Assembly (NCBI GenBank): GCA_964388575.1
Contig: CAYMAZ010000003.1
Coordinates: 20,637-84,636, forward strand
Source: an uncultured Bacteroidales bacterium
GTDB taxonomy: Bacteria > Bacteroidota > Bacteroidia > Bacteroidales > DTU049
Reading direction: 5' to 3'
DNA: 64,000 bases
Positions 10,654-48,842 of this stretch are shown here, one piece after another; the first letter of the stretch is position 1, and the number at the start of each line of letters is the position of its first letter. A program made the translations under genes and the position numbers. Below the pieces are notes generated by a model. The model was not told the origin of the DNA. It made no database searches and was given only the letters and a program-made list of their open reading frames with translations.

Positions 10654-10667
10654 TTTATAATCTTTAA

Positions 10668-11333
10668 CTACTCTGACATTTTCTGCCTGCCAGAAAATAC
10701 ACCCTGATTCCAACTGACAACTTCCCGAACAGACCCGTCTTCATTGAACCAAACTTCATCACCATGCTTTTCGTTACGGGCATAGGGTGTTTTGACCAAT
10801 GTATCGGAAGTATTCAGATGAAAAGAAACATGAACCCCGTTTCCTTTGCTGTATTTTCCATTTCCGATCAATATCCCGCTGGAATTATAATATGCCCAAT
10901 CCCCCTCATAAAAATCATCCAGAAAAGATCCTTCAAGTTTTAATTGTCCGTTTTCATGATATTCCACATATTTTCCATTCAGTTTTCCCATATTATAATT
11001 TAGTTCCATCTGAAGTTTTCCGTTTTCGAAATACTTCAAAGCAGATCCATGCAAGGTATCATTGACATAATTCTCAACACGCTCAGGTTCTCCGTTAAAA
11101 TACCAGGTTTTGAACAATCCGTTCAATCTGTCATTTTCGTATGTACACATGATTTGCTTACTTCCATTTACGTAGTAATAATTTGCTTCTCCGTTGCGGT
11201 AAGAATTTTTGTAAGGAATCTCAGATTTAACTTGTCCGTCTGGATAGAACTCCCGCTTCATATTGTTACAGGACAAGAAAATGCTTCCCAGCATAATTAG
11301 AAACAATAAATATAACCTATTTATTTGATTCAT
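10668..11333 (-). CDS. MORN-repeat-variant (YwqK-like) protein with signal peptide or lipobox
   Basis: 221 aa. Repeated G.Y..YY.NG / G....Y..NG motifs (NGEANYYYVNGSK, NGKYVEYHENGQLK). N-terminal LGSIFLSC. Confidence 0.7.
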   Translation of the reverse strand: MNQINRLYLLFLIMLGSIFLSCNNMKREFYPDGQVKSEIPYKNSYRNGEANYYYVNGSKQIMCTYENDRLNGLFKTWYFNGEPERVENYVNDTLHGSALKYFENGKLQMELNYNMGKLNGKYVEYHENGQLKLEGSFLDDFYEGDWAYYNSSGILIGNGKYSKGNGVHVSFHLNTSDTLVKTPYARNEKHGDEVWFNEDGSVREVVSWNQGVFSGRQKMSE

Positions 11334-18176: not shown

Positions 18177-18189
18177 AAGAAAAACTTTG

Positions 18190-19620
18190 ATGCTCCCACT
18201 AACCAAAATCATAGCTGATATATATCAAAAATTCTCAGGAGAAAAAACACAGAGCGTTGTGCAGCTCCCGGCCACTGCCAGCGACAGGATTTATTTCAGA
18301 ATCACTGCTCACTCCGGACAGACTTTTATTGCCACATACAGCACCAATCTGCGTGAAAATGCCTCATTTGTCAATCTGAGCAGGCACTTTGCCAGTCACA
18401 CGTTAAATGTTCCAAAGATTTTGCATGTTGAACCAGATTTCTCAACATACATTCAGGATGATCTGGGTGATATGAGTCTGTTTTCACTTCTGCAGCAACA
18501 TCAGGAAAAGACAATCTCTGATGAAATTCGCAACTTTTATATGAAAGCTCTTGAGCAACTGATCCGCTTTCAGTTTGATGCCTCAGCGAATCTTGATTTT
18601 TCACATTGCTATCCTGTTGAAGCATTTGACAAACAAGCCATGATGTGGGACCTGAATTATTTTAAATACTATTTTCTGAAACCCTCGGGCATTCATTTTG
18701 AAGAAGATCTGCTCGAAAAAGACTTTCAGGCACTCACTGACTTTTTGCTTCAGAAACATCATTACCAGTTCATGTTTCGCGATTTTCAGTCCAGAAACAT
18801 CATGATCTGTGACAACAAAACTTACCTGATTGATTATCAGGGCGGTCGCAAAGGTCCTTACACTTACGATCTTGCGTCCTGCATACTGGATGCAAAGGCA
18901 GATTTGCCTGATTATTTCCGTCAAGAACTGACAGAAGCATATTTCAAACTCATTCCTGATAAAGAAAAACCCAATCGCCTGAATTTTAACAATGAACTGA
19001 TTGCCTGTCAACTGATCCGCATTCTGCAGGCTTTCGGGGCGTACGGTTTCAGAGGCATGATTCAGAAAAAAACGTTGTTTCTGCAAAGCATTCCCTATGC
19101 TGCCGCAAATCTTAAACATCTTCTGAAAGAAAATCTGCCGTTTGAGGTTCCACATCTCAAAATCATTCTGAATAACATGACTGAAAAGTACCACAAAAAA
19201 CCAGATCAGATGATATCAGGAAAATTGACTGTCCGGATTTACAGCTTTTCATACAAAAAAGGCATTCCCGATGACACGACAATCAATGGCGGTGGTTTTG
19301 TGTTTGACTGCCGTTCACTTCCCAATCCAGGACGTATTGCAGAAATGCAGATAAAAACCGGTTTTGATCACGAAGTGATTCACTTACTTGAAAGTGAAGA
19401 TGCTGTTGGAAAATATATTTCCTCTGCAGCAAAACTGGTAACTTCATCTGTTGACAATTACCTGAAAAGAGGATTTTCTGATCTTATGGTCAGTTTCGGA
19501 TGCACCGGAGGTCAACACCGTTCCGTTTTCTGTGCCAATGCTTTATATGCTTTACTTAAGAAAAAATACGAAAACGAGAATATTCTTATTGAAATTTCTC
19601 ATCGCGAGTTGATCAAGTAA
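18190..19620 (+). CDS. Fusion protein: APH/AmgK-like (eukaryotic-like kinase fold) phosphotransferase domain + RapZ C-terminal domain
   Basis: The N-terminal two thirds carry an FRDFQSRNIM catalytic loop and LIDYQGG (DFQ-type Mg site), as in the APH / choline / MurNAc-kinase family. The C-terminal roughly 140 aa carry FDCRSLPNPGR ... FGCTGGQHRSV, the signature of the RapZ (YhbJ) C-domain. The track start is a TTG one codon upstream of the ATG. Confidence 0.75.
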   Translation: MLPLTKIIADIYQKFSGEKTQSVVQLPATASDRIYFRITAHSGQTFIATYSTNLRENASFVNLSRHFASHTLNVPKILHVEPDFSTYIQDDLGDMSLFSLLQQHQEKTISDEIRNFYMKALEQLIRFQFDASANLDFSHCYPVEAFDKQAMMWDLNYFKYYFLKPSGIHFEEDLLEKDFQALTDFLLQKHHYQFMFRDFQSRNIMICDNKTYLIDYQGGRKGPYTYDLASCILDAKADLPDYFRQELTEAYFKLIPDKEKPNRLNFNNELIACQLIRILQAFGAYGFRGMIQKKTLFLQSIPYAAANLKHLLKENLPFEVPHLKIILNNMTEKYHKKPDQMISGKLTVRIYSFSYKKGIPDDTTINGGGFVFDCRSLPNPGRIAEMQIKTGFDHEVIHLLESEDAVGKYISSAAKLVTSSVDNYLKRGFSDLMVSFGCTGGQHRSVFCANALYALLKKKYENENILIEISHRELIK

Positions 19621-21049: not shown

Positions 21050-22144
21050 ATGAGATTTCTATTTTTCTCCATTTGCATAATTTTACACGGTGTTGTAAAC
21101 ATATCTGAAGTGTATTCCCAAACCAACACACCAAAATATTCCAATGAATTTCTTTCAATTGGGATCGGAGCCCGTTCCATGGCAATGTCTGGTTCTGTTG
21201 CAGCCACTGTTGACGATGCTTCTGCCGGATACTGGAACCCTTCAAGATTGCATCTTCTCAATGGTGAAAGACAGCTGTGTCTGATGCATGCTGAGTATTT
21301 TGCCGGGATTGCGAAATACGACTACGGCAGTCTTGGCCTGAAACTTGACGACAGTTCAGCCCTTGCTGTTTCCTTTATCCGATTTGGTGTGGACAACATT
21401 CCCAACACTACAGATCTTGTTGATGGACAAGGCAACATTCATTATGACAGGATTACCACTTTTTCACTGGCTGATATGGCATTTCTTATTTCCTACGGAA
21501 GAAAAACACAAATTGAAAATCTTTCACTTGGTGGAAGTGTTAAAATCATTAGACGAAAAATTGGTGATTTTGCAGGTGCCTGGGGCTTTGGTCTTGACTT
21601 TGCAACATCCTATTCAACAGGGCCATGGCTTTTGGCAGCTGTGGCAAGAGACGCAACTTCAACTTTTAATGCATGGAGTTTCAATCTTTCAGACCGGATG
21701 AAAGAAGTATTTACAATCACCGGAAACATCATTCCTGAAAACTCACTGGAAATTACCTTACCGTCGCTTCTCCTTGCAGCAGGCAGACAGATTGATATTT
21801 CTCCTTCTTTTGCAATCTTGCCTGAAGCAGGGCTTCATGTTACTTTCGACGGAAAAAGAAACGTCCCTGTCAAAACGAATGTGTTCAGTATCTCACCACA
21901 TCTTGGCATTGAAACATCGTACAAGCAATTTATCTACTTCAGAATCGGAATTGGCAATATTCAGCAGGAATACAACACAGACGGAAAAAAAATAACATCT
22001 TTTCAGCCCAATATGGGCATTGGGATCAACATTCAAGACAGATTTTCAATTGATTATGCGCTTACTGATATCGGAGATCAATCAATGGCTCTCAATTCGA
22101 ATATTTTTTCTCTCCGCATGTCATTTAACCGTGGTCAAAAATAG
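21050..22144 (+). CDS. PorV/PorQ-family outer membrane beta-barrel protein (second copy, PorV2-like)
   Basis: 364 aa. FLSIGIGARSMAMSGSVAATVDDASAGYWNPS parallels the PorV motif LIAPDARSGALGDAGVAISPDANSMHYNPA at 47.7 kb. It lies directly upstream of a C25-like gene. Confidence 0.72.
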   Translation: MRFLFFSICIILHGVVNISEVYSQTNTPKYSNEFLSIGIGARSMAMSGSVAATVDDASAGYWNPSRLHLLNGERQLCLMHAEYFAGIAKYDYGSLGLKLDDSSALAVSFIRFGVDNIPNTTDLVDGQGNIHYDRITTFSLADMAFLISYGRKTQIENLSLGGSVKIIRRKIGDFAGAWGFGLDFATSYSTGPWLLAAVARDATSTFNAWSFNLSDRMKEVFTITGNIIPENSLEITLPSLLLAAGRQIDISPSFAILPEAGLHVTFDGKRNVPVKTNVFSISPHLGIETSYKQFIYFRIGIGNIQQEYNTDGKKITSFQPNMGIGINIQDRFSIDYALTDIGDQSMALNSNIFSLRMSFNRGQK

Positions 22145-22150
22145 TTGAAT

Positions 22151-25100
22151 ATGCAGAAAAAACCTGAATTGTTTATATTTATTATTCTGACATTCCTACT
22201 GTTTCTCCCCGGAACAAATCAGGCACAATATTCAAATAGCTGGATAAATTTTAATCAGAAATACTACAGAATCCCAATTGTTCAGGACGGAATATACAGA
22301 ATAGGGTTGCCGGCACTTACAGCAGCAGGACTAATACTTACCTCGATAGACCCCAGACAAATTCAAATATTTCATGAAGGAGAAGAGCAGTACATCTATG
22401 TGCACGGAGAAAATGACGGGATCTTCCACCCGAATGATTATATTGAATTTTACGGAAAGCGAAACACTGCATCAGCTGATATTCCCATGTTTTCAAATCC
22501 TGAACATGTTGCAAACCCAAATTACAGCTTTTTCAATGATACTGCTTGTTACTTTCTAACAGTTACATCGGGAATCAACAACAGAAGAATTGTCAGAGAA
22601 ACAGACAATAATTACAATGCCTACACACCGGTTCCCTATTTCTGGAAGACTTCGAGACAAGATTATACAAGCACATATTTCGGGGGAAGACCCAATTCAT
22701 CAGGAACAACAGATTTTGAATACTCTGATGCAGAAGGCTGGTTTGATGTTGCCTTTGGAATAAATTCTCTAACACCTGGTGTTGCTGTTACAGTTTCCAA
22801 AAACATACCCACTCCACAGGCTTTTACTGCAGGTCCATCAGCAAGTGTAGACTTGAAAGTAATCGGAGCCAGCAACTATATCGGATTAAATCCTGATCAC
22901 CATCTTATCATTCAGTTTCCCGGAAAAACAATTGACACACTGTATGAAGGATACACCACACTTCATATACAGTCTTCCATCAACCCTATTCAACTGGGAA
23001 CATCAAACACAACTTTTACATTTACATTACCCAATGATCTTGGAAGCGCCGCTGACAGGAATACAATTGCATATATTCAAGTCAAATATCCCCACACAAT
23101 GAACATGGAAAATCAGCAAAAAATGTTCATTCAGGTCCCTGATCAGTCAGGACTAAAATCTCAGCTGCAACTGACCAATATCAATGTGACACAGGGAGAC
23201 AGTATACTTGCTTTTGATCTGACAAACAAAAAACGTATCAATATGGTGCCTTATGGTCCGGCATTTAAGTCTGTTATTTTTAACAACGGGAGTGACAAAG
23301 ATGTTTTTGTGACAACAGGCAGCCAGATTATCAACATACAAACCATTACTCCTGTTAATCAACAGTATAGCAGCGGAACATTTACAAACTATTCCGACTT
23401 CCAGTTTTCAGAAACCGATTACATCATCATAACCCATTCATCACTGATGGCAGGAGCAACTCAATATGCAGGTTACAGAACTTCCAAAGGATACAATGTG
23501 TTGCTTGCAGATGTGCAGACTTTATATGATCAGTTTGGTTACGGAATCCGGAAGCATCCCATGGCAGTAAAGAATTTCATTTCGTTTGCCCTTGATCATT
23601 TTGCAGACACCATTCACGGACTTTTTCTTATCGGGAAAGGCTACAAAGCAGGAGAAAATCCATCATACAGAAATAATCCATCAATTTATTCCCAAACACT
23701 TCTCCCTTCCATGGGAAATCCACCTTCTGACCTGCTTTTTTCAACAAAGATCAAGGTAAATTCACTGGTTCCTGAAATACCCACAGGACGATTAAGTGCC
23801 AAAACCAATCTCAACGTCACTTCTTATCTCAATAAAATTATTGAGTATGAAACCGCACAATCAGCACCCTACAATATTTCCAATCCAATGGAAAAGGAAT
23901 GGATGAAAAAAGCACTGCATTTTGCTGGTGGATCAAATGCCAGTCAGGGAGCATTACTGGAATCCTTTTTAAATGAATACAGAGATTCTCTCGTAGATCC
24001 TCATTTTGGGGCCACTGTTAGAACATTCAAGAAAAATACCACCGACCCAATGCAGCAGATTATTTCAGACTCACTAAAAAATCTCATCAACAATGGTGTA
24101 TCAATATTGAACTTCTTTGGTCATGCAGCAGGTATTGGTTTTGACATCAGTATAGATAATCCTTCTGAATACAGCAACTATAAAAAATACTTTTTCATCC
24201 TGGCAAATTCGTGTCTTTCAGGCGATCTGTTTCAACAAACCCAAACTTCAAGTGAAGTTTTTGTACTGATTGAAAACAAAGGTGCAATCGGATATCTAGG
24301 ATCAACAACCAATGCACTTGCAGACCTGCTACATATTTACTCGTCAAATTTTATAGGTGGCATTTCCTATTCAAATTATGGTAAATCTGTTGGGAGCAGT
24401 ATACAGAAAGCCATCGCCAGGATTGACAACCCTTCCAATCCGTTTATTAAAGAAATTTGTTATTCAATGACATTGCACGGAGATCCTGTTCTATGCATCA
24501 ATCCTCATCCACTGCCAGACTTTGTAATGCACCCTCCATCAATTTTGTTCAATCCTCCTGTTGTTACAACCGAAACAGATTCATTTGAAGTTATTGTAAT
24601 TTCTAAAAATCTTGGAAAATCTGTTGTTGATAATTTTGCAATTGAGCTCACACGAATGTATCCGGACAACTCAAGCGAAACTTATGTTCAGTCCATTCCT
24701 GCAACAATTAATACCGATACCGTCATCTTTACGGTTCCGGTTGATTTATCAAAAGGTGTTGGAATCAATTCATTTACTGCAACTCTTGATGCTTATTTCA
24801 ATATTGAAGAAATTACAGAAACCAATAATTCAGCTTCAAAACAACTTTTGATAACATCTTCTGACGTCATTCCAATTTATCCATATGAATTTGCTGTTGT
24901 TTCTGACAATGTCATAATACTGACTGCATCTACCGGTAACCCCTTTGCTCCATCAAACACGTATATTTTTGAAATTGATACAACTGACGTATTTAACAGT
25001 CCTTTTAAACAAACCGGAACAGTTGTTTCTTCCGGAGGAATCATAGAATGGGCTCTTCCTTTTTCCATGTCAACAATGCCCGACAGTACTGTTTATTACT

Positions 25101-27250
25101 GGAGAACATCTGTTTCCGGAGGGAGTATATGGAGGGAAAGTTCTTTTCAGTACATTGAGGGCAAACGTGGTTGGGGGCAGGCTCATTTTTTTCAGTTCAA
25201 AAAAAACCAGTATGATAAAATCACATTCGACACACAAAGCAGACAGTTCAGTTTTGATACCGCAAGTGTATGGATTTCGGCACAAACAGGGTATTACGAT
25301 GGCATTCTGAATCCAACCTTTGAATGGTTTGAGGAATGGTATAAGGTAAATGGTATTATGAAAGGCAACTGGTCGTGCACCAATTACAACGGCAACGGGA
25401 TGAAATTTGCCGTATTCGATCCCTTAACTATTGAGCCCTGGATGAGCAAATTTGACGGCAGTGGCATTGGTCCTTACGGAAATTTGCACTGCAGAAATTA
25501 TGACTGGTGGGACTTTGATTATTTTACTTTCAGACCAGACTCTGCAGATCAGAATTACTGGCATATGAAAATGTCAGGACTGATAGATACAGTTCCAGCA
25601 GGACATTATGTTCTTGCATTTAGTCATCGAAACCATAACGCTGAAAACTATCCTGAAGAATTATATCAGGCATTCGAGTCAATCGGAAGCGGATATATCA
25701 GAACCATTGAAAACAACAAACCCTATATGATTTTCGGACGGAAGGGAGATGCCCCCGGAACAGCGCAGGAAAGTATCGGTGCTGCATTGACATCAGTGAT
25801 TAAGAATGATTACTATCTGCCTACAAATTTTTATTACGGATCAATCAAATCAACATTGATCGGTCCGGCATCAGAATGGAAATCATTGCATTGGAGAATC
25901 GAGGAAACAGAACAGGGATCTTCAACAGATACCACATTCCTGTATGTACTCGGTCAAAACAGTATTGGCAGTTTTGACACTCTGATCGGACCTTTGCCTC
26001 CCTTTCCCGATTCACTCGACATTTTGGATCTGGATCAAAGAATTCAGGCCGGACAATATCCATATATCCAGCTTTTGCTTACGACCACTGATGAAATCAA
26101 CTTCACACCTTCACAACTCATTCGATGGCACGTACTTTATGAGGGAATGCCCGAAACAGCTCTCAGTCCCAATGTTCATTTCAACTTTTACAACGATACT
26201 ATTCAGGAAGGAGAACAAATTAAAATGAGTATTGCAACCAAAAATATCAGTCCTTATGATTTCCCTGACAGTCTGATGGTTGACTTCTGGATACTTACCA
26301 ACACAAATAATATTGCACCTCTTGTCAGAAACAAAAAAATTGACACCCATCCCTCCGGACACGTAATCATTGATTCCGTTTCATTTTCCACACTTGGAAT
26401 GAGCGGATTAAACAGTTTATGGATTGAATTCAATCCAATTGATACCGTAACAAATACCTATCATCAACTGGAACAACACCATTTCAACAACATTGCACAG
26501 ATTCCGTTTTACGTATCCAAAGACAAAATCAATCCGGTACTTGATGTTACATTTGATGGTATCAGAATCCTTGATGGTGATATTGTCAGTGCAAAACCAA
26601 ATATCCAGATTATGCTCAGTGATGAAAATCAGTTTCTGCTGCTGGATGATACTGCTGCAGTCAGAGTATTCATACAGCGTCCAGGGCAGGAACTGGAGCG
26701 AATATTTTTCAGAAGGAACAACATGGACCAAATGTTCTTTTATCCTGCCGGATCTACGTCAAACAACGCTGCACGTATCGAGTTTCCTGCCAATTTTCCG
26801 GTCGACGGAGAATATTTGCTTAGAGTTCAGGCTACTGATATGTCGCAAAACGAATCCGGAGATATTGATTATATTATTCATTTCAAAGTTATTAACAAAT
26901 CAACGATAACTGAAGTGATGAACTGGCCCAACCCATTTTCCACCCGGACACATTTTGTATTCACGCTGACAGGTTCTGTTATTCCCGATTATTTTAAGAT
27001 TCAGATCATGACTATTACCGGCAAGGTTGTGAGAGAAATTGACATTACTGAACTTGGGCCAATCCATATTGGCAGAAACATAACTCAATATGCATGGGAT
27101 GGCCGTGATCAGTTCGGGGATCAGCTTGCCAATGGTGTATACCTGTATCGCGTAATCACAAAAATCCGAAATGAAGATATTGAACTCAGCCAGACCCAGG
27201 CATCTCAATATTTCACTAAAGAATTCGGCAAAATGGTTCTAATTCGTTGA
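22151..27250 (+). CDS. Very large peptidase-C25 (gingipain/PorU-like) protein with T9SS C-terminal domain (PorU paralog)
   Basis: About 1699 aa. The N-terminal block GIYRIGLPAL..IDPRQIQIFHEGEEQYIYVHGENDGIFHPNDYIEFYG parallels PorU GIYRLTGQHL..IDPRNIRIFGNGG..LYVFGENDGVFNTSDYILFYA. His/Cys candidates are NFFGHAAG and ILANSCLSGD. The C-terminal domain is NWPNPFSTRTHFVF...GVYLYRV. The track start is a TTG two codons upstream of the ATG. Confidence 0.75.
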   Translation: MQKKPELFIFIILTFLLFLPGTNQAQYSNSWINFNQKYYRIPIVQDGIYRIGLPALTAAGLILTSIDPRQIQIFHEGEEQYIYVHGENDGIFHPNDYIEFYGKRNTASADIPMFSNPEHVANPNYSFFNDTACYFLTVTSGINNRRIVRETDNNYNAYTPVPYFWKTSRQDYTSTYFGGRPNSSGTTDFEYSDAEGWFDVAFGINSLTPGVAVTVSKNIPTPQAFTAGPSASVDLKVIGASNYIGLNPDHHLIIQFPGKTIDTLYEGYTTLHIQSSINPIQLGTSNTTFTFTLPNDLGSAADRNTIAYIQVKYPHTMNMENQQKMFIQVPDQSGLKSQLQLTNINVTQGDSILAFDLTNKKRINMVPYGPAFKSVIFNNGSDKDVFVTTGSQIINIQTITPVNQQYSSGTFTNYSDFQFSETDYIIITHSSLMAGATQYAGYRTSKGYNVLLADVQTLYDQFGYGIRKHPMAVKNFISFALDHFADTIHGLFLIGKGYKAGENPSYRNNPSIYSQTLLPSMGNPPSDLLFSTKIKVNSLVPEIPTGRLSAKTNLNVTSYLNKIIEYETAQSAPYNISNPMEKEWMKKALHFAGGSNASQGALLESFLNEYRDSLVDPHFGATVRTFKKNTTDPMQQIISDSLKNLINNGVSILNFFGHAAGIGFDISIDNPSEYSNYKKYFFILANSCLSGDLFQQTQTSSEVFVLIENKGAIGYLGSTTNALADLLHIYSSNFIGGISYSNYGKSVGSSIQKAIARIDNPSNPFIKEICYSMTLHGDPVLCINPHPLPDFVMHPPSILFNPPVVTTETDSFEVIVISKNLGKSVVDNFAIELTRMYPDNSSETYVQSIPATINTDTVIFTVPVDLSKGVGINSFTATLDAYFNIEEITETNNSASKQLLITSSDVIPIYPYEFAVVSDNVIILTASTGNPFAPSNTYIFEIDTTDVFNSPFKQTGTVVSSGGIIEWALPFSMSTMPDSTVYYWRTSVSGGSIWRESSFQYIEGKRGWGQAHFFQFKKNQYDKITFDTQSRQFSFDTASVWISAQTGYYDGILNPTFEWFEEWYKVNGIMKGNWSCTNYNGNGMKFAVFDPLTIEPWMSKFDGSGIGPYGNLHCRNYDWWDFDYFTFRPDSADQNYWHMKMSGLIDTVPAGHYVLAFSHRNHNAENYPEELYQAFESIGSGYIRTIENNKPYMIFGRKGDAPGTAQESIGAALTSVIKNDYYLPTNFYYGSIKSTLIGPASEWKSLHWRIEETEQGSSTDTTFLYVLGQNSIGSFDTLIGPLPPFPDSLDILDLDQRIQAGQYPYIQLLLTTTDEINFTPSQLIRWHVLYEGMPETALSPNVHFNFYNDTIQEGEQIKMSIATKNISPYDFPDSLMVDFWILTNTNNIAPLVRNKKIDTHPSGHVIIDSVSFSTLGMSGLNSLWIEFNPIDTVTNTYHQLEQHHFNNIAQIPFYVSKDKINPVLDVTFDGIRILDGDIVSAKPNIQIMLSDENQFLLLDDTAAVRVFIQRPGQELERIFFRRNNMDQMFFYPAGSTSNNAARIEFPANFPVDGEYLLRVQATDMSQNESGDIDYIIHFKVINKSTITEVMNWPNPFSTRTHFVFTLTGSVIPDYFKIQIMTITGKVVREIDITELGPIHIGRNITQYAWDGRDQFGDQLANGVYLYRVITKIRNEDIELSQTQASQYFTKEFGKMVLIR

Positions 27251-27414: not shown

Positions 27415-30192
27415 ATGGCAAAACCAAAATTCATTAAAAAAATCAATGATTTGTTAACGCATCCACGCAGTGGAAAAATCATAAAAATTTCATCCCTGGT
27501 CATTCTTGCAGGTTGTTTGCTATACTTTGGACTGAGATTTTATCTTCAGTTGAGGGAACAAACAAGAGATCCTTGGGATTTTTTGCCGGACAACGTGCTC
27601 TCAGTCATACAGGTGAATGATGTGCAGGATTTTGTTACCAACATGACAGGAAATGCTCTGTTTTCAGATTTTGATCAATTACTCAGCTCCTCTGAAATTC
27701 AAAAAATGTTTTCATTTTACGACTCACTTTTTGCCACCAAAGAACCAATTCAGGAGGCCTGGTTTCAGGGGCAGTTACTGATCAGCACAAATTTTACCGG
27801 ATCTGATAAATTTGAAACAATTTTTATTAAACCACTCCCCCATCCCAATCAGGAGTCAAGAATATATCAGTTTTTTGAGAAACATGCAAATTCCCATAAA
27901 ACTACTGAATTACAGGGACATAGAGAAAATGCAATACAATATATATTCGGGATTGACACAATATTTCTTTGTATCAGGGATGGTGTTTGTCTGTTCAGTA
28001 AGTCAACAACAATTATTGAACAAGCATTGAAGGCTTCAAGCATAAAAAATTCGACAATCAATGATGTAGCTTTTACTGAAGTCAGAAAAACAAGCGGCAA
28101 AAAGTGCATGGCTAATCTGTATGTTAATTACAGGTTTCTTTATCGATTTGCATCCCGAATCCTCAACGGAGAAACATTGAAGTCAATGGATTTACTTAAT
28201 CATTTTACTGGCTGGAGTGCTTTTGACATTCATACAGTCGAACAGAAAATCTATTTAACCGGATTTACAGCTCCGGATCAGAAGAATCCATCCTGGCTCG
28301 GAGCCTTCACATCTTCTGACCCTCAACCCACAGATATTATCAACATACTTCCGGGTAATACAATTTCCTTCATCTGGCTCGGGTTCAATAATTATGAAAG
28401 TCACCGTGAGACCTATAAACAGTTTCTGACAGAAACTGACGAAATACAGGAGTTCAACAACAATCTGACCAACCTCAAACGAAGAACAGGTGTACAAAAT
28501 ATCAACGAACTGATCTTTCCCTACATTGATAATCAAATGGCATTGTTTTCAATTCCTGAAAGATCAGGAAAAAAACTAAGCCATTTTGCAGCATTCAAGG
28601 TGAAGGATGTCTCAACTTTTCGCAAAAATCTTCAGGAAGTTGTTCGTTCTGCTTCAAAGACAAACAAAATGCAGATTGACACAAGCACATTCAGAAATCA
28701 ACTTATCACAACAATTCCTGCAGATTATATGTTATTTGATCTTTTTGGGAAATTGTTTAGTGCGATGGAAAAAACATGTTTCACAATTTACAGCGGGTAT
28801 TGGATCGTAGGAAATTCGCATGAAGCCATGAAAGAATATCTGAACCAGGTCACTTCAGGACGGCTGTTGATAAAAAATTCTTATTATGAAGAATTTTCAC
28901 AGTCGGTTTCTGGTGAAGCAAATATCTATCTTTATGCATCTCCGAGAAAAATGAAAAGTGAGATTAAAATGTGGTTTAATGAGGAGCTGGCCGTAAAAAC
29001 TGAAGGAAACATTTCTGAATTTGATAATCTTGAGGCTATCGGAATTCAGTTTTCATCAACCAATTCTTTATTTCTATCTGGTATCACCCTGTTCAGATCC
29101 ACTGATATTATTGAAGAAAGCACCAGCGGATGGGAAATTACACTTGACGGGCTGACAACATCAGGCCCCTGGTTTGCAGATGTTGCAGACCAAACATCTA
29201 AAAACATCATTTCATTCGACTCATTTAATAATATGTATTTTGTTTCAGACAAAGGTGAAGTCTTGTGGAAAATTCCTGTTACCGAGCGCCCTGTCAGCAA
29301 AGTATTCAGTGTTGACGCCTTTAAAAACGGGAAAATTCAATACCTCTTCAATTCTGAAAACTTTTTGTTTCTGATAGACAGAAATGGCAAAAATGTTGAG
29401 AACTTTCCTGTAAAACTTCCTGTTCAGGCTGGCGGACCGATTAATGTTTTTGATTATGAAAGAACGAAGGATTACCGTATTGTATTTACAGGCATTGACA
29501 ATGTGATCTATAACTATAACATCAAGGGAGAACCAACGTCAGGATGGGAGAAACCGAAGCTCAGTACCGAAGCAACCCAGCAACAAATCAAACATCTGCG
29601 TCTTGTAAATACAGATGCCCTTTATATAAAAGACAATAACAATCTTCCACATTTCTATAACCGCAGAGGCATACCCATGTTTGACCTCAGTGATATCTCT
29701 CTCAGTCAATATTCAGAGATTTTTGCTGCTTCAAAATATTGTCGTTGCTTTGTCTCAACAACTTCAGATGGTCAGATTGCCATGATAGGGACAAACGGTG
29801 AAATCGAATACAAAGTTATTCATGAGGCAGGTGCAGGTCACATCTTTATATATGAGGACATGGACAATGACGGGCAATCCGATTTCATATTTATTGAAAA
29901 GGGAAAAGCATATGTTTTTGATCAGGACGGAAACCTTATTTCAGGACTTGAAATTAATTCCGATGCAGGCCGAAACACAGGTTATATAAAAAACAGCCCT
30001 TACGGTCCACTGCTATACGTATTTTCTTCTGACGGAAGTGAATTGTATTTTGTGAATAAAACCGGCAGAATTCTCCCTGAAGAAACATTTCGTTCGGCAA
30101 ACTCAGCCGATTTTTATCAGAATGTAGATGCAAGCAAACTTGTTGTAACATCATCATATGGGAACAACCTGATTTTATACGTTATCGAATAA
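27415..30192 (+). CDS. Membrane-anchored protein of unknown function with C-terminal beta-propeller/FG-GAP-like repeats
   Basis: 925 aa. N-terminal TM anchor (ISSLVILAGCLLYFGL). The C-terminal third has repeated strand-turn motifs and DMDNDGQSDFIFIEKG (FG-GAP-like Ca site). Confidence 0.55.
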   Translation: MAKPKFIKKINDLLTHPRSGKIIKISSLVILAGCLLYFGLRFYLQLREQTRDPWDFLPDNVLSVIQVNDVQDFVTNMTGNALFSDFDQLLSSSEIQKMFSFYDSLFATKEPIQEAWFQGQLLISTNFTGSDKFETIFIKPLPHPNQESRIYQFFEKHANSHKTTELQGHRENAIQYIFGIDTIFLCIRDGVCLFSKSTTIIEQALKASSIKNSTINDVAFTEVRKTSGKKCMANLYVNYRFLYRFASRILNGETLKSMDLLNHFTGWSAFDIHTVEQKIYLTGFTAPDQKNPSWLGAFTSSDPQPTDIINILPGNTISFIWLGFNNYESHRETYKQFLTETDEIQEFNNNLTNLKRRTGVQNINELIFPYIDNQMALFSIPERSGKKLSHFAAFKVKDVSTFRKNLQEVVRSASKTNKMQIDTSTFRNQLITTIPADYMLFDLFGKLFSAMEKTCFTIYSGYWIVGNSHEAMKEYLNQVTSGRLLIKNSYYEEFSQSVSGEANIYLYASPRKMKSEIKMWFNEELAVKTEGNISEFDNLEAIGIQFSSTNSLFLSGITLFRSTDIIEESTSGWEITLDGLTTSGPWFADVADQTSKNIISFDSFNNMYFVSDKGEVLWKIPVTERPVSKVFSVDAFKNGKIQYLFNSENFLFLIDRNGKNVENFPVKLPVQAGGPINVFDYERTKDYRIVFTGIDNVIYNYNIKGEPTSGWEKPKLSTEATQQQIKHLRLVNTDALYIKDNNNLPHFYNRRGIPMFDLSDISLSQYSEIFAASKYCRCFVSTTSDGQIAMIGTNGEIEYKVIHEAGAGHIFIYEDMDNDGQSDFIFIEKGKAYVFDQDGNLISGLEINSDAGRNTGYIKNSPYGPLLYVFSSDGSELYFVNKTGRILPEETFRSANSADFYQNVDASKLVVTSSYGNNLILYVIE

Positions 30193-30351: not shown

Positions 30352-31953
30352 ATGAAATCACCCAAACACAAGTTCATTACAGCAATGTTGATGTTTTTTC
30401 TGATCATCACATCCTGTGTCAGAGAAGAATACTACCTTCAAAACATTAAAAACCCGGATTGGGAACCAAATTTTGCAGCCCCGCTGATCAATTCGAAACT
30501 CACAATCTGGGACATCCTGAATGATTATGATTCAACAAATATCATTGTTGAAGATCAGAGCAATTTTCTTTACCTGGTTTATACAAATCAGGTCTACTCT
30601 CAATCTGCTGAGGAACTGATTCAGATCAGCGATCAGATGCTGAATGCTTCGCACTCATTCAACACTGGCGGATCGATTGCCCAGGGAGATAGTTTTGTTA
30701 CCACTTTTTCATATCATTACGACTTCAGTTTTCCCGGAACGCAGGTCATTGACAGCATGTATCTTAAAAACGGCAATTTGAACCTGAACATCAACACCAG
30801 TTTCAACATGCCAGGTAAAATAGAAATTGAGTTTCCCGGCACTCAAAACGGCAACCCTTTTATTGAAACAATCTATATGTCAGGGCCCAACCAAAGTCAG
30901 AATATCAGTTTTGAAAACACAAAACTGATATTCAATCATTCTGGAGGGAATAACCGTCTTGAGTTGAAATTCAGGATTGTACTTTACGGCAACGGAAATG
31001 CCAACTTATCCCCTTACAATTTGAGTATTGACGGCATATTCAGCCAGATGCAGTTTCGAGCACTGTTTGGATATCTCGGTCAACTGAATTTTGCATTAAA
31101 CGAAGATACTGTTTCTGTCAAAATTTATAATAATAATGTTGACGGGATCATTAACTGGGAAGATCCACGGTTTTATCTGACTGTCACCAATTATCTGGGA
31201 ATGCCCGTTCAGATCAATATTAATTTACTGGAAGCACGCCGAACAAAAGCTCCGGCCAATACAATACAAATCACAGGACCCGGTATTCCTGTTCCCTGGA
31301 ATATTGCGTATCCAAACTTTTCGCAAATTGGTAGCGGAGAACAGTCAACAATGTTTCTTGACAACAACAACAGCAACATCACACAAGCACTGAATATTTC
31401 ACCACAGCAAATCAATGCCCTTCTGGATGCAGTTTCCAATCCTTCCGGAATGTCCCAGAATTTTGCTTTTGACACAAGCCACTTTAATGTTAATGCAAAA
31501 ATTGAACTCCCTTTACACGGAACTGCTCAGGGATTTGTAATTTCTGACACGATAGAGCTCAATCTGGGAGAGGATTTTGAGGATTCAAAACATATTGAAT
31601 GGGTTTTGTTTAAAATTTTCTGTGAAAATCAATTTCCGGTCGATGCAAACCTTCAGATATATTTTACTGATGAGAACTATGTAATAATTGATTCTTTGCT
31701 GGCTCCTCAACAGCAATTTATTCATGCCGCCACACCAGGTCCTCCTCCCGATTACATCGTAACCCAAAAATTCACAAAAGTCATAACCACCAAAATCAAT
31801 AATGACAGAATCAGCGAATATAGCCGGATTAAAAATGCGATTATCCTTGCACATCTGAATACCTATAACAACAGCTCTCAGATTGTGAAGTTTTATTCTT
31901 ATTATCAGATGCATGTCATGCTCGGAGCACAGGTTCAACTTCAAATTCATTAA
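30352..31953 (+). CDS. Hypothetical lipoprotein
   Basis: 533 aa with a lipobox (FFLIITSC). I recognise no motif. Confidence 0.55.
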   Translation: MKSPKHKFITAMLMFFLIITSCVREEYYLQNIKNPDWEPNFAAPLINSKLTIWDILNDYDSTNIIVEDQSNFLYLVYTNQVYSQSAEELIQISDQMLNASHSFNTGGSIAQGDSFVTTFSYHYDFSFPGTQVIDSMYLKNGNLNLNINTSFNMPGKIEIEFPGTQNGNPFIETIYMSGPNQSQNISFENTKLIFNHSGGNNRLELKFRIVLYGNGNANLSPYNLSIDGIFSQMQFRALFGYLGQLNFALNEDTVSVKIYNNNVDGIINWEDPRFYLTVTNYLGMPVQININLLEARRTKAPANTIQITGPGIPVPWNIAYPNFSQIGSGEQSTMFLDNNNSNITQALNISPQQINALLDAVSNPSGMSQNFAFDTSHFNVNAKIELPLHGTAQGFVISDTIELNLGEDFEDSKHIEWVLFKIFCENQFPVDANLQIYFTDENYVIIDSLLAPQQQFIHAATPGPPPDYIVTQKFTKVITTKINNDRISEYSRIKNAIILAHLNTYNNSSQIVKFYSYYQMHVMLGAQVQLQIH

Positions 31954-31982
31954 CGCTTCAATGTTACAGATCATGAAAAAAA

Positions 31983-40811: not shown

Positions 40812-40845
40812 AGTCTTTTTCAAAAGATTTAAGGATGTGAAATTA

Positions 40846-40870: not shown

Positions 40871-40894
40871 TTAAATAATATTTTTTTTTCAATC

Positions 40895-43583: not shown

Positions 43584-43663
43584 TAATTTAGTTACGCTTG
43601 GAGTGAATTTTTTCCATTTTTCAAAAATAATTTGTGCATATTTGCGTTTTTGTTGATACCACT

Positions 43664-46600
43664 ATGAAAATCCACTTTATGTTCAATTTGATCAGCAAAT
43701 ATTTTTTGCTTGCTTGTTTTGTTGTTTTAAACAACACTCCAATTTCAGCTCAGGATTTTACTGTTGCGATCAATTGGGGGGCTCTTAAAACAGTATCTTA
43801 TGAATCTCCTCACACAGCCAGGGCAATTTGGTTTGAAAATGCAGAATACAGATCATTTCCCACAATTCCATTATTTTCTATAAATATTGGTATTACTGAT
43901 CCGCATCTTGAAATCACTGCTGAAATTTCAGACGATGAATACATCAACCTGACCCCAGAAGAGATATTGATTGTTGAACAATCTGGGTTTAATCCTGAAA
44001 AAGATATCAAAATCGTTGTTCAGCATAAAACAATTCGGAAACAACGATTTTCTGAAATTTTGCTGACACCCTTCAGGATCAGTTCTTCTGACGGGACACT
44101 TCAAAAGCTGGTTTCATGTACAATAGAAATGAACTATTCTTTTGCTATGAACACATCTGATTCTCAGAAATCGAATCAAAAACAACTGAAAACCAATCAA
44201 TCTGTTCTTTCAGATGGAACATTTCACAAAATTTCTGTTACCCAACCAGGAATATACAGACTTACCGGACAACATCTGATAGATATGGGTTACGATCTAA
44301 CTGAAATTGACCCAAGAAATATCAGAATTTTCGGAAACGGGGGTCGTATGCTTCCTGAGGGAAACGATGTCCCGCGAATTGATGATTTGTATGAAAATGC
44401 TCTTTACGTCTTTGGTGAAAACGACGGTGTTTTCAATACCAGTGACTACATCCTGTTTTATGCACCCGGACCCAATTCATGGTCATTCAATCCTGCAACA
44501 GGTGAATATATGAGTTCAATCAACCGATACAATGATAAATCATTTTATTTCTTCAATATCGGAGAGAGTCAGGGAAAACGCATGAACGTTGTAAATCACA
44601 TGAATGAAACGCCCTCCAACACCACCGGAATATTTCTGGATCGTCTGACCTATGAAAATGAAACCTACAACCTGATTAAGAGTGGCAAGGAATGGTTTGG
44701 CGATGTTTTTGATCTGAGTCTGAATCAAAGTTTCAGTTTTGCACTCCCAAACATTCACGCCGATTCCTGCATTAAAGTCCGGGTGATGATGGCAGCCAGG
44801 GCATCGGGGGCAACCTCAGCATCTGTCAGTGTCGGGTCAGCTTCGACTAGTATCGGGTTTTCAGGAGTTACAGGATACAACTCTGATTATGCAAAACAGG
44901 GAACGGGTCTGATTTGCGCAACTCCATCATCAAACATCAGTGTCAGTATTACATATAATAAGAACAACCTTAATGATGCCAAAGCATGGTTGAACAAGAT
45001 CAACATTAATGCCTGGCGCAATCTGACAATGACAGGAAATCAAATGCATTTCCAGAATCCGCTGATTGATGACCCTGGAAATTTTGTCAGATATCAAATT
45101 GCAACATCAAATACAATCACTGTACTTGACATTACAAATCCTCTTGAACCATCAATAATTCAGGGAAATCTGAACGGGCAGATCTATTCGGTCATTGCAG
45201 AGGCCGATCAGGGAAAAGAATTTATTGCATTCAATGGTCTTAGTTTTCTGTCACCATTATTAGAAGAAAAAGTTGCAAATCAAAACCTGCACGGAATGTC
45301 AAACATTGACTATCTGATTGTTACTCATCCGTTATTTTCTGAACAAGCAAACAAAATCGGTCAATTTCACAATAATCTCAACGGATTATCCTTTGTAGTT
45401 GTGACTCCTCAAATGATCTATAATGAATTTTCTTCAGGTTCTCAGGATCCTTCTGCCATACGTGATTTTGTGAAAATGTTTTATGACAGAGCAACAAACC
45501 AGGAAGAAATGCCCAAATATTTGCTCTTTTTTGGCCGTGCATCATACGATTACAAAAACAGAATTGCTGATAACACCAATTTTGTTCCCACCTTTCAAAG
45601 CAGTGAATCTCTCAATCCCACCCGGTCTTATGCTTCGGATGATTTTTTCGGACTACTTGACAACGGAGAAGGTTTTGAGTGTAACGGGCATCTTGACATC
45701 GGAATTGGAAGACTCCCTGCAACAACAGTCGAGGAAGCTGAGAATCTGATGAGCAAAATTTTCCGATATCACGAAAAAACCAATTTCAACGATTTTGAAA
45801 ACACCTGCAATTTTATTCAGAACACACCCAACCTTTCCGACTGGAGAAACTGGGTTACTTTTATAAGTGATGATGGAAACACGAATCTGCATTTTATTCA
45901 GTCTGAAGGAATTTCAACAAATCTTGGTAACAATTATCTCCATCTGAACATTGAAAAAATCCATCTTGATGCCTATCCACAAAACAGCACTCCTGGGGGG
46001 GAAAGAGCTCCAGCCGTGAATGAAGCAATAAACCGCCGGATGCAACTTGGCTGTCTGATTATGAATTACACCGGACACGGAGGTGAAGTTGGCTGGGCAC
46101 ATGAAAGAATTCTTGAACTTTCCGACATCAACGGTTGGGAAAACCATTACAACATGCCATTATTTATCACTGCAACCTGTGAATTCAGCCGATTTGATGA
46201 TCCCGGAAGGATTGCTGCCGGAGAAATGGTCCTTACAAATCCAAAAGGTGGTGGAATTGCACTGTTTTCAACTACACGACTCGCATATTCTACGTTTAAT
46301 GAAAATCTCAACAGAAGTGTTTACAAAGTTGCTTTTGAAAATAACAACGGGGTTTATCCTACTCTTGGAGAAATTCTCAGTTTTGCCAAAACCGATAACG
46401 GTTCAAACGAATTTATTAGAAATTTTATTCTGCTTGGTGATCCGGCAATGCGACTCGCCTATCCTGAAAACAGAATCATCACAACATCAATCAACGGACA
46501 ACCTGCAGGCATTGATCCGGATACAATTTCTGCTTACGGCTTTGTAACTGTAGAAGGGTATATTGCTGATATTCAAAACAACAAGTTAACTGATTTCAAC

Positions 46601-47545
46601 GGAACCATCACACCGACTGTTTTTGACAAGGCTTCAACACTTTCAACTCTTGGTAGCGACTCAGAAAGTTTTCCTGCCACTTTTAAGCTTCAGAAAAACA
46701 TCATTTATAAAGGAAAGGCAAGTGTTGAAAATGGAGAATTTTCATTTTCATTTTATGTTCCAAAAGACATCAACTATTCTTATGATTACGGAAAAATCAG
46801 TTATTATGCAGAAAACGGGCAAACAGATGCAACGGGATATTTCAATCAGTTTTACGTGGGCGGCTCAGAGCAGAATAATACCGGCGACAACGCTGGGCCG
46901 GAAATAAAACTGTTTATGAATGATATTACCTTTACCGACGGAGGCACAACAGGTGAAAACCCTGTACTTATAGCCATATTGCGCGATTCATCAGGAATCA
47001 ATACACTCGGTTCAGGAATTGGTCATGACATTACACTTATTCCTGATAACTCAGGGGAAGTCATTGTGATGAATGACTATTACGAAGCAGACCTTGACTC
47101 ATACAGAAGCGGCAGGGTTATTTATCCTTTTCATAATCTTGCTGAAGGGCCACATTCTGTCAGTTTCAAAGCCTGGGATGTATTTAACAATTCTTCAGAA
47201 GCATATCTGACATTCTATGTTGCAGCATCACACGAAGCCATTATCAGGAATCTGATAAATTTTCCAAACCCGTTCAATGAGTTTACTGACTTCATTTTTG
47301 AACACAATCAATCCTGTGCTCCCTATGACATTGTGATTGATATCTACAATGCTGCCGGACAACATGTTTCACGTATTGAATCTGCACAGCAATCCATAGG
47401 ATACGAATCAGAACCAATTCGCTGGTATGGTTTATCTCATGACGGAAATCCGCTTGCTTCAGGCATTTATGTATATTCTATTTCAATGAAAACCTGCGAA
47501 GGAGGCACTGCACAAAGAAGCAGCAGACTTGTCATTATTAAATAA
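43664..47545 (+). CDS. porU: T9SS sortase PorU (peptidase C25 family)
   Basis: About 1293 aa. Gingipain-like His/Cys motifs NYTGHGGEVGW and FITATCEFSRFDD. C-terminal domain FPNPFNEFTDFIF...GIYVYSI. porV follows directly. The track start is a GTG ten codons upstream of the ATG. Confidence 0.87.
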   Translation: MKIHFMFNLISKYFLLACFVVLNNTPISAQDFTVAINWGALKTVSYESPHTARAIWFENAEYRSFPTIPLFSINIGITDPHLEITAEISDDEYINLTPEEILIVEQSGFNPEKDIKIVVQHKTIRKQRFSEILLTPFRISSSDGTLQKLVSCTIEMNYSFAMNTSDSQKSNQKQLKTNQSVLSDGTFHKISVTQPGIYRLTGQHLIDMGYDLTEIDPRNIRIFGNGGRMLPEGNDVPRIDDLYENALYVFGENDGVFNTSDYILFYAPGPNSWSFNPATGEYMSSINRYNDKSFYFFNIGESQGKRMNVVNHMNETPSNTTGIFLDRLTYENETYNLIKSGKEWFGDVFDLSLNQSFSFALPNIHADSCIKVRVMMAARASGATSASVSVGSASTSIGFSGVTGYNSDYAKQGTGLICATPSSNISVSITYNKNNLNDAKAWLNKININAWRNLTMTGNQMHFQNPLIDDPGNFVRYQIATSNTITVLDITNPLEPSIIQGNLNGQIYSVIAEADQGKEFIAFNGLSFLSPLLEEKVANQNLHGMSNIDYLIVTHPLFSEQANKIGQFHNNLNGLSFVVVTPQMIYNEFSSGSQDPSAIRDFVKMFYDRATNQEEMPKYLLFFGRASYDYKNRIADNTNFVPTFQSSESLNPTRSYASDDFFGLLDNGEGFECNGHLDIGIGRLPATTVEEAENLMSKIFRYHEKTNFNDFENTCNFIQNTPNLSDWRNWVTFISDDGNTNLHFIQSEGISTNLGNNYLHLNIEKIHLDAYPQNSTPGGERAPAVNEAINRRMQLGCLIMNYTGHGGEVGWAHERILELSDINGWENHYNMPLFITATCEFSRFDDPGRIAAGEMVLTNPKGGGIALFSTTRLAYSTFNENLNRSVYKVAFENNNGVYPTLGEILSFAKTDNGSNEFIRNFILLGDPAMRLAYPENRIITTSINGQPAGIDPDTISAYGFVTVEGYIADIQNNKLTDFNGTITPTVFDKASTLSTLGSDSESFPATFKLQKNIIYKGKASVENGEFSFSFYVPKDINYSYDYGKISYYAENGQTDATGYFNQFYVGGSEQNNTGDNAGPEIKLFMNDITFTDGGTTGENPVLIAILRDSSGINTLGSGIGHDITLIPDNSGEVIVMNDYYEADLDSYRSGRVIYPFHNLAEGPHSVSFKAWDVFNNSSEAYLTFYVAASHEAIIRNLINFPNPFNEFTDFIFEHNQSCAPYDIVIDIYNAAGQHVSRIESAQQSIGYESEPIRWYGLSHDGNPLASGIYVYSISMKTCEGGTAQRSSRLVIIK

Positions 47546-47606: not shown

Positions 47607-48842
47607 ATGATCATCGGAAAAAAATTAAACCACCTGCAACAGATATTTACAGTATCTTTCATTTTCATTGCTTGCAGTTTTCGAATTTCTGCCCAGCCAA
47701 ATTACAATGAAATATTAGGACAGGATAAGTTGAACGCCATCACAACTTCTGTTCCCTTTCTTCTGATTGCACCTGATGCCAGAAGCGGAGCACTTGGAGA
47801 TGCAGGTGTTGCAATTTCTCCTGATGCAAACTCAATGCACTACAATCCCGCCAAATACGCTTTTGCTGAAAACGAATTTGGTGTTGCGATGTCATACAGT
47901 CCATGGCTCAGAGGTCTTGTCAACGATATCAGCCTTGCATATCTTGCAGGATACAAACGTCTCGGAAACGGACAGACCGTTGCTGCATCACTGAGATATT
48001 TTTCTCTTGGAGACATCATTTTCACAGATAAGGTTGGTGAAGTTATCGGACAGTTCAGACCAAATGAATTTGCAGTTGATCTGGCGTACGCCAGAAAATT
48101 TTCAGACAATATTTCAGGAGCTGTTGCCATCCGGTATATCAATTCAAATCTCACCGGTGGTATCTTTGTCAACGGGGCTCAGTCCAAAGTCGGACAATCC
48201 ATTGCTGCTGACGTTGCTGTGTATTATTCAAAAGAAATAAGCTATGGTGAAACTCCCGGATTCTTTTCATTTGGTGCAAATATTTCAAATATCGGTGCAA
48301 AAATTTCATACACAGAAAATCTTGACAAGGATTTTATTCCAATCAATTTAAAACTCGGACCAGCCTTCACGTTTAATTTTGATCAGTATAATACAGTCAC
48401 TTTTATGTTTGACATCAACAAACTGCTGGTTCCTACGCCCCCTGTTTATGCTCGTGACAGTCTTGGAAGACCGATTATTGACAATGACGGAAATTATGAA
48501 ATTGCAAAAGGTAAAGATCCTGATCGCTCCGTTGTTTCAGGTATGCTTGGTTCATTTTCAGACGCACCGGGAGGATTTGAAGAAGAGCTAAAAGAATTCA
48601 ACTATTCGGTGGGACTTGAATACTGGTATGATCAGCAGTTTGCTATTCGCGGAGGATTCTTCTATGAACATCCGCACAAGGGCAACCGTAAATATGTCAC
48701 TCTTGGTGCTGGCTTCAGACTGAATGTGTTCGGACTGGACTTTGCCTATCTCATCCCGCTCGAACAAAGACATCCCCTTGAAAACACACTCCGCTTTACA
48801 CTCACCTTCGACTTTGAAGCGTTTAAAGAACTGGGTAATTAA
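47607..48842 (+). CDS. porV: T9SS outer membrane shuttle protein PorV (LptO)
   Basis: 411 aa. Contains LLIAPDARSGALGDAGVAISPDANSMHYNPAKYAF. It is a beta-barrel lying directly downstream of porU. Confidence 0.87.
   Translation: MIIGKKLNHLQQIFTVSFIFIACSFRISAQPNYNEILGQDKLNAITTSVPFLLIAPDARSGALGDAGVAISPDANSMHYNPAKYAFAENEFGVAMSYSPWLRGLVNDISLAYLAGYKRLGNGQTVAASLRYFSLGDIIFTDKVGEVIGQFRPNEFAVDLAYARKFSDNISGAVAIRYINSNLTGGIFVNGAQSKVGQSIAADVAVYYSKEISYGETPGFFSFGANISNIGAKISYTENLDKDFIPINLKLGPAFTFNFDQYNTVTFMFDINKLLVPTPPVYARDSLGRPIIDNDGNYEIAKGKDPDRSVVSGMLGSFSDAPGGFEEELKEFNYSVGLEYWYDQQFAIRGGFFYEHPHKGNRKYVTLGAGFRLNVFGLDFAYLIPLEQRHPLENTLRFTLTFDFEAFKELGN

Follow-up and report, generated by a model that had tools for sequence, protein, structure and literature searches.

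The attachment step of the T9SS (type IX secretion system), in which the secretion signal is cleaved and the cargo protein is set free or else attached to the cell surface, is to our knowledge understood almost only from PorU, PorV, PorQ and PorZ of Porphyromonas gingivalis. We analyzed a 64,000-nucleotide stretch of DNA (hereafter the window) from an uncultured Bacteroidales bacterium (DTU049; assembly GCA_964388575.1, contig CAYMAZ010000003.1, positions 20,637-84,636, forward strand) that carries, in addition to a canonical porU-porV pair, a second pair of genes, porV2 and porU2, encoding a PorV-like barrel and a very large C25-family protein. This locus raises the question of whether such a bacterium possesses a second surface module for handling T9SS cargo. 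We lean, if not firmly, toward the view that it does, with porV2-porU2 being a two-gene operon for a barrel-docked, cargo-processing module that would have PorV-PorU, within the T9SS attachment complex, as its paralog. The pair itself is real, already catalogued and typical of its family, and does not represent a new kind of system. The genes in question are as follows.

21050..22144, + strand: porV2, encoding a 364-amino-acid outer-membrane beta-barrel of the PorV/PorQ family
22151..27250, + strand: porU2, encoding a 1699-amino-acid C25-family protein, with an ATG start (MQKK...)
43634..47545, + strand: canonical porU (NF033707, 1272.7 bits; PDB 6ZA2, E 8e-129)
47607..48842, + strand: canonical porV (NF033710, 505.4 bits)

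Both open reading frames (ORFs) of the second pair lie where an initial annotation of the window had placed a 364-residue barrel followed by a C25 protein of about 1700 residues, and the model scores listed above bear out its placement of canonical porU-porV at 43.7-48.8 kb. The stop codon of porV2 (TAG) occupies 22142-22144, and the first porU2 ATG follows 6 nucleotides later, at 22151. Because homologs begin at the methionine of MQKK, a 1699-residue protein starting at this ATG is more likely than the 1701-residue product of the TTG-initiated ORF found in the ORF listing (22145-27250), and all PorU2 residue numbers given here count from the ATG. The PorV2 signal peptide, as read from its sequence, is MRFLFFSICIILHGVVNISEVYS followed by Q, with cleavage between VYS and Q and hence a glutamine at the new N-terminus. 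PorU2 is likewise predicted to be left with an N-terminal glutamine; the AQ at its cleavage site is kept in the family consensus, and residues 1-25 are of low confidence in the structure model. Base composition is flat over the window (GC content 0.33-0.41, with no island), and a scan for promoters and terminators gave only background-level signals.

We compared both proteins with curated family models. PorV2 matches NF052325 ("putative type IX sorting system protein PorV2", PorVQ2) at 460.7 bits (cut-off 325) and the PorV/PorQ superfamily model NF033709 at 99 bits (cut-off 90), but stays below the cut-offs for true PorQ (NF033711, 53.2 vs 220 bits) and true PorV (NF033710, 36.6 vs 250 bits); it is a member of the PorV/PorQ family and lies outside the PorP/SprF family (TIGR03519). 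PorU2 matches NF052324 ("putative type IX secretion system sortase PorU2") at 700.9 bits (cut-off 450, E 2.5e-210), over model positions 3-879 of 879 and residues 8-893 of the protein (10-895 in the 1701-residue ORF), and the same model is matched by all nine diverse PorU2 relatives. It fails the model of true PorU (NF033707, 186.8 vs 420 bits), which it matches at model positions 5-693 only. The Pfam domain Peptidase_C25 (PF01364) is found at 426-783 of the 1701-residue ORF (188 bits, E 3.7e-55). As judged from E-values of 1e-138 to 1e-210, the family matches are not a chance effect, and the PorU2 and PorV2 labels given in the initial annotation are the exact names of NF052324 and NF052325.

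The family is thus already curated and named by NCBI, and the pair in the window is a routine member well above the cut-offs. In a public NCBI record, a barrel 56% identical to PorV2 already bears the name "putative type IX sorting system protein PorV2", and in that genome a 1673-residue C25 protein comes next, with an overlap of 4 nucleotides, so that the window shares the adjacent, barrel-first arrangement with it. The nearest database entries are at most 73% identical to PorU2 and at most 86% identical to PorV2. The architecture of PorU2 is also that of its 120 best homologs, with no material difference. It comprises the following parts.

22151..22225, + strand: signal peptide, residues 1-25 (predicted cleavage between TNQA and QYSN)
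22226..23410, + strand: PorU-type N-terminal domain cluster, all-beta, residues 26-420 (BLASTP, PorU models, Foldseek match to 6ZA2)
23411..24502, + strand: C25 (gingipain-type) catalytic domain, residues 421-784 (PF01364; profile match to 6ZA2 402-787 and to Kgp)
24122..24124, + strand: codon of candidate catalytic His658, in FFGHAAG (aligned dyads, conservation)
24212..24214, + strand: codon of candidate catalytic Cys688, in ANSCLSG (aligned dyads, conservation)
24503..25156, + strand: two predicted beta-sandwich domains, residues 785-1002 (structure model, all-beta secondary structure)
25157..25780, + strand: FAM3/ILEI (PANDER)-like alpha/beta domain, residues 1003-1210 (Pfam PF15711), without a counterpart in PorU
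25781..26905, + strand: three further predicted beta-sandwich domains, residues 1211-1585 (secondary structure of the model)
26906..27247, + strand: long type-A-like T9SS C-terminal domain (CTD), residues 1586-1699 (NWPNPF ... NGVYLYRV ... GKMVLIR)

Similarity between PorU2 and the PorU of the window was found by BLASTP in three regions, in all of which it is collinear. PorU2 residues 22-138 align with PorU 180-309 (32% identity, E 4e-12), residues 419-781 with 555-939 (19% identity, E 4e-4, with the His and Cys aligned) and residues 1530-1671 with 1149-1286 (26% identity, E 1e-9). The first of these alignments contains the blocks GIYR, IDPR.I.IF, GENDG.F and DYI.FY, so the N-terminal blocks that had earlier been proposed as common to the two proteins are genuine. 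A further proposal, that the peptidase is about 400 residues longer than PorU, holds against the long-form PorU of this genome; relative to P. gingivalis PorU (a 1156-residue chain) the excess is about 540 residues.

Whether PorU2 is closer to PorU or to the gingipains depended on the method of comparison. A search of the PDB with the single PorU2 sequence matched Kgp only (E 4e-5) and not PorU, which suggested an affinity with gingipains that was reversed by a family profile and by a fold search. A profile built from nine PorU2 family sequences found PorU (6ZA2) first, at 52.3 bits and E 1.4e-13, the match being significant over the catalytic domain and the immunoglobulin (Ig)-like/CTD end and weak and non-significant over the N-terminal stretch; Kgp came second (32 bits, E 2e-7), over the catalytic domain only. 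We then searched with an AlphaFold model of residues 1-900 (predicted local distance difference test, pLDDT, 89.6; predicted template modeling score, pTM, 0.87) using Foldseek, and PorU 6ZA2 was again the best match (E 1.7e-28), over about 1011 columns and hence beyond the catalytic domain. RgpB followed at 3.8e-18 and further RgpB and Kgp entries at 5e-17 to 2e-16, with alignments of about 510-540 columns and E-values some ten orders of magnitude weaker than that of PorU. No gingipain-type prodomain was detectable in PorU2. By its architecture and predicted fold, PorU2 is a deep paralog of PorU, rather than a protein that groups with the gingipains.

The candidate catalytic His and Cys that had been picked out in the initial annotation are kept on proper alignment. 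His658 and Cys688 fall on chain positions 216 and 249 of 4RBM (Kgp), which are His444 and Cys477. Within PorU, His658 aligns with the GH of the protein in the window and with chain position 655 of P. gingivalis PorU (6ZA2), and Cys688 aligns with TATC and with chain position 688. The latter positions are consistent with C690/H657, which we take to be the catalytic residues of P. gingivalis PorU. Both residues are invariant in 119 of 119 full-length homologs. The C25 fold and the aligned His/Cys dyad are also what PorU2 has in common with the gingipains RgpB and Kgp.

The largest departure from PorU is a block of about 800 residues (785-1585) between the catalytic domain and the CTD, which in an AlphaFold model of residues 785-1699 (pLDDT 87.6) is made up of five beta-sandwich domains and the FAM3/ILEI lectin-like domain. 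NF052324 covers only about the first 890 residues, so that this extension lies outside the curated definition of the family. Representatives of at least 1,193 clusters at 50% identity nevertheless contain the block (E<=1e-30), and in the full-length proteins among the best 150 it always lies at about 750-1600 of a protein of 1600-1750 residues. On this evidence the extension is a fixed part of the PorU2 family, although the NCBI model stops before it. P. gingivalis PorU reportedly has two Ig-like domains between its catalytic domain and its CTD, according to the description of the 6ZA2 structure, in which case PorU2 would carry roughly four extra domains. The last beta-sandwich is the counterpart of the Ig-like domain that precedes the CTD in PorU (BLASTP E 1e-9), and the first one after the catalytic domain is weakly CARDB-like (E 0.0039, below cut-off). 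A Foldseek search with the whole C-terminal model was uninformative, as it returned only generic multi-Ig proteins such as complement C3 and alpha-2-macroglobulins (TM <0.17), with PorU at rank 38, and shows no more than a string of beta-sandwiches. Neither the model of residues 1-900 nor that of 785-1699 contains beta-propellers of the PorZ kind.

For the FAM3/ILEI-like domain, PF15711 passes its gathering score of 27 both with whole PorU2 (31.7 bits) and with the fragment (35 bits), and the domain is among the precomputed annotations of most PorU2 homologs. A family profile of this region reached FAM3A (7ECQ) and FAM3B/PANDER (2YOP/2YOQ) at marginal E-values of 0.12-0.16, and a single-sequence PDB search with the region returned nothing relevant. 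The C-terminal model places helices in this region, at model positions 347-363 and 385-393. The fold of FAM3 and of the POMGnT1 stem domain is known to bind GlcNAc and other sugars, through Arg129, Asp179 and Arg207 in the latter (PMC9802357).

The CTD runs for about 110 residues from NWPNPF to the end of the protein and contains the usual motifs PNPF, GVYLYRV and KM.L.R. That PorU2 ends in a T9SS CTD, as initially annotated, is supported by homology to the CTD of PorU (BLASTP E 1e-9; profile match to 6ZA2 1006-1141) whereas the general CTD models give it scores below their cut-offs, 17.4 bits (TIGR04183, cut-off 23) and 15.1 bits (PF18962, cut-off 27). The CTD of the window's canonical PorU is likewise sub-threshold (18.2 bits), and seven of nine PorU2 family sequences reach E<=0.01 with TIGR04183 (7e-5 for the best of them). 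Uncleaved CTDs are long (108 residues in PorU and 96 in PorZ), whereas cleaved ones have 67-88 residues, and cargo CTDs as a class lack sequence conservation (PMC11285876). The CTDs of gingipains are short and cleaved (PMC11285876), unlike the long CTD of PorU2.

We calculated the conservation of each domain as mean identity to the PorU2 of the window over 119 homologs. The CTD is the best-conserved domain, with 76% mean identity and 39 of 114 columns near-invariant. The other domains have 44-57% mean identity: the last beta-sandwich 57%, the catalytic domain (with 48 near-invariant columns) 53%, the ILEI-like domain 47% and the N-terminal cluster 45%. PorV2 is in turn more conserved than PorU2 in 63 of 64 genomes that have both genes (median identities 53.9% and 46.7%). 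From the length and high conservation of the CTD, together with the higher conservation of PorV2, we infer a fixed contact between CTD and barrel.

To see how firmly the two genes belong together, we inspected the best 80 PorU2 loci, 67 of which had enough upstream sequence for pairing to be counted. PorV2 is encoded directly upstream of PorU2 on the same strand in 64 of these 67, so the barrel-first order, opposite to that of porU-porV and already remarked upon when the window was first annotated, is general. Three loci (L046, L071 and L075) lack an adjacent PorV2; at L071 a 2611-residue protein is encoded divergently upstream of PorU2, in the place of PorV2. All-against-all clustering of the flanking ORFs of the 80 loci revealed no other conserved neighbor, the next most frequent flank family occurring at 16 of them. 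As judged from these loci, the conserved unit is strictly one of two genes. The spacing of 6 nucleotides here, the 4-nucleotide overlap in the public genome and the adjacency in 64 of 67 loci argue for tight operon coupling. No canonical PorU or PorV is encoded within 10 kb of the pair at any of the 80 loci, so its proximity of 16 kb to porU-porV in the window is incidental.

PorU2 is widespread. We obtained 866 scored homologs, and a PorU2 relative is present in at least 540 species-representative genomes, with one PorU2 locus per genome among the best 80. The best 120 homologs come from several Bacteroidia orders, have the same domains and measure 1616-1728 residues, except for one of 1467; their database names go no further than "hypothetical" or "C25 family cysteine peptidase". 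Carriers include Bacteroidales, Marinilabiliales (Marinifilum, Draconibacterium), Prolixibacteraceae, Rikenellaceae and Lentimicrobiaceae, as well as Vicingaceae/Flavobacteriales and one Chitinophaga metagenome-assembled genome. PorV2 has at least 7,985 homolog clusters at 90% identity, one of them labeled candidate division KSB1. The fixed architecture, with the extension in place, and the single locus per genome suggest a part of a machine rather than an effector.

Compared with PorU-PorV, the pair shares the N-terminal cluster, the C25 domain with its Cys/His dyad, the terminal Ig-like domain followed by a long CTD, and an adjacently encoded partner barrel of the PorV/PorQ family. It differs in its reversed gene order and in the roughly 800 extra residues of PorU2, including the FAM3/ILEI-like domain, and PorV2 falls 47 residues short of the length of PorV, the alignment of the two barrels being confined to the N-terminal 89 residues. 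Moreover, sortase activity has been demonstrated for PorU but is putative for PorU2. As its model scores bring PorV2 nearer to PorQ, it may be more aptly called an "anchor" than a "shuttle". In the known systems the uncleaved CTDs of PorU and PorZ stay bound to their cognate barrels, PorV and PorQ (PMC10202324, PMC11285876), and the holding of such CTDs by cognate PorV-like barrels has been reviewed (PMC10202324).

These comparisons allow a mechanism to be proposed. PorU2 would be exported by Sec and then cross the outer membrane via the T9SS by means of its CTD. The long, near-invariant CTD would stay uncleaved and dock PorU2 permanently on PorV2, as PorU is docked on PorV and PorZ on PorQ. 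At the surface, the Cys/His dyad might then cut a subset of T9SS cargo, at the CTD or elsewhere, via a thioester intermediate. The cargo would be released or transferred to an amine on a surface glycan, with the lectin-like domain and the long stalk of beta-sandwiches perhaps holding or reaching that glycan.

Several observations weigh against such a cargo-processing module. Although the family models, the profile and the fold search support the paralogous sortase/shuttle-type module that was proposed when the window was first annotated, the catalytic domain alone is tied between PorU (29.6 bits) and Kgp (31.4 bits) in the family-profile search, i.e. it is as similar to that of the gingipains as to that of PorU. 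The sequence therefore does not tell whether PorU2 has sortase chemistry, and its kinship with PorU is drawn from the domains on either side and from the fold as a whole. The CTD lies below the cut-offs of the CTD models, and beyond Pfam there is little to back the lectin-like assignment (E ~0.1 against the PDB). At the 80 loci, genes for cargo, glycan synthesis or other T9SS parts show no consistent linkage to the pair, which leaves no pointer to a particular substrate. Finally, literature searches for PorU2, PorV2 and PorU paralogs returned accidental text matches only and, in the library searched, no paper on the pair, in line with the initial annotation, for which no experimental characterization was known, and we found no published experiment on any member of the PorU2/PorV2 families. 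None of the three grounds named in the initial annotation as refuting its reading (grouping with gingipains, loss of the dyad, functional data already in print) was thus encountered.

The tie between PorU and Kgp also makes it conceivable that PorU2 is mere T9SS cargo, a surface-anchored C25 protease or adhesin acting on environmental proteins or glycoproteins with PorV2 as its private anchor or secretion partner, in the way that PorP/SprF-like barrels hold type-B CTD proteins such as SprB or PG1035. Dedicated pairs of barrel and cargo genes are an established pattern in the T9SS, and the principle of an adjacent barrel and surface protein is common to them and to porV2-porU2 (PMC9143113). The string of Ig-like domains with a lectin-like domain, which Foldseek likened to generic multi-Ig proteins, resembles an adhesin or substrate-binding stalk, and extra C25 proteins need not be sortases, since PorU is dispensable for the secretion of several cargos in Flavobacterium johnsoniae (PMC9127263). 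We nevertheless regard this possibility as doubtful. PorU2 has the PorU-specific N-terminal cluster, matches PorU in overall fold and yielded no trace of a gingipain-type prodomain; the CTD resembles type A and that of PorU rather than type B, and PorV2 belongs to the PorV/PorQ and not to the PorP/SprF family. Nor would nutritional proteases or adhesins usually show so rigid an architecture, a single locus in each genome (among the best 80) and 41-48% identity between orders.

A different comparison, with PorQ-PorZ, is suggested by the PorV2 scores (53.2 bits for PorQ vs 36.6 for PorV) and by the name "PorVQ2" of the NCBI model, and in both systems a PorV-family barrel goes together with a large surface protein whose CTD is probably retained. 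The pair might accordingly be a functional counterpart of PorQ-PorZ that mainly binds a glycan or lipopolysaccharide and presents it to canonical PorU through its lectin- and Ig-like domains, with the C25 domain being accessory or regulatory. The FAM3/ILEI-type domain has a fold known to bind sugars (PMC9802357), and one family member weakly matches the PorZ equivalog model (E 3.7e-6), of which a retained-type CTD may be the cause. PorZ, however, consists of two beta-propellers without a peptidase domain, whereas PorU2 is a C25 enzyme without propellers; its invariant dyad and 48 near-invariant catalytic columns argue for catalysis as the core function, and glycan binding is putative. We consider this explanation improbable. 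More ambitiously, the pair may form a self-contained second attachment complex, in which PorU2 would have taken over the glycan-presenting role of PorZ through the FAM3/ILEI-like domain on its five-domain stalk and would attach a distinct class of cargo to another surface glycan, independently of PorQ/PorZ and of anionic lipopolysaccharide (A-LPS); we consider this rather unlikely. The very low identity to the canonical pair (19-32% for PorU2, and a PorV2-PorV alignment of 89 residues only) might instead indicate a decaying or non-functional porU-porV duplicate. Conservation data effectively refute this idea, as both ORFs are intact in a window of uniform composition, catalytic residues and domain order persist in hundreds of full-length orthologs, and the divergence is ancient and family-wide, not local.

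The remaining genes of the window place the pair in a T9SS context that consists of GldJ, a PorP/SprF-family protein, PorU, PorV and a type-A CTD cargo. Two of these are encoded divergently upstream of canonical porU-porV:

40895-42388, - strand: GldJ (TIGR03524, 472 bits, cut-off 458)
42427-43434, - strand: PorP/SprF-family barrel (TIGR03519, 241 bits)

Gliding-type T9SS genes are therefore clustered around the canonical pair in this genome. Beyond GldJ and the barrel come genes for a Mur ligase (39525-40934) and for AnmK (38455-39528). The cargo, encoded about 5 kb upstream of porV2 (15463-15957, - strand), is a 164-residue protein with a passenger of about 90 residues and a type-A CTD (TIGR04183, 37.3 bits, cut-off 23).

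Three genes directly downstream of porU2 on the same strand were considered as possible parts of the module and rejected, as tblastn found none of them at the 80 loci. They encode a 925-residue protein that has a membrane helix at its N-terminus and matches a beta-propeller weakly (27415-30192, + strand), a 533-residue protein with a lipoprotein-like N-terminus (...ITSC; 30352-31953, + strand) and a DUF5723 protein (31913-33400, + strand; 282.7 bits). That the last of these might be a distant PorP/SprF-like barrel was not supported either, because BLASTP gave no match to the PorP/SprF protein of the window.

A partial, sub-threshold match to PorZ (123.5 vs 260 bits, residues 559-681) was found in a 1101-residue protein (7408-10713, - strand), which lies between a histidine kinase (11339-13681) and a LytTR-type response regulator (6620-7378) in a region read on the - strand; it is probably a propeller/Y_Y_Y-type sensor rather than PorZ. 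The window also encodes a 477-residue protein (18187-19620, + strand) in which residues 24-257 form an APH/AmgK-like kinase domain and residues 348-475 a RapZ C-terminal domain, an unusual-looking fusion, and a full-length tryptophanase, TnaA (35550-36926, + strand; NF053783, 862.9 bits, cut-off 750), the presence of which suggests that the organism probably makes indole.

Beyond the labels already present in databases, the analysis maps the domains of the 800-residue extension, the lectin-like one among them, and indicates that no part of PorU2 is conserved as well as the CTD and that the conserved unit is strictly of two genes. A second, equally conserved module of peptidase and barrel is thus present in very many environmental Bacteroidota, and its breadth suggests an unstudied branch of cargo sorting. 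Such a module could help to explain why PorU is dispensable for several cargos of F. johnsoniae, and how cells choose between releasing a protein and anchoring it.

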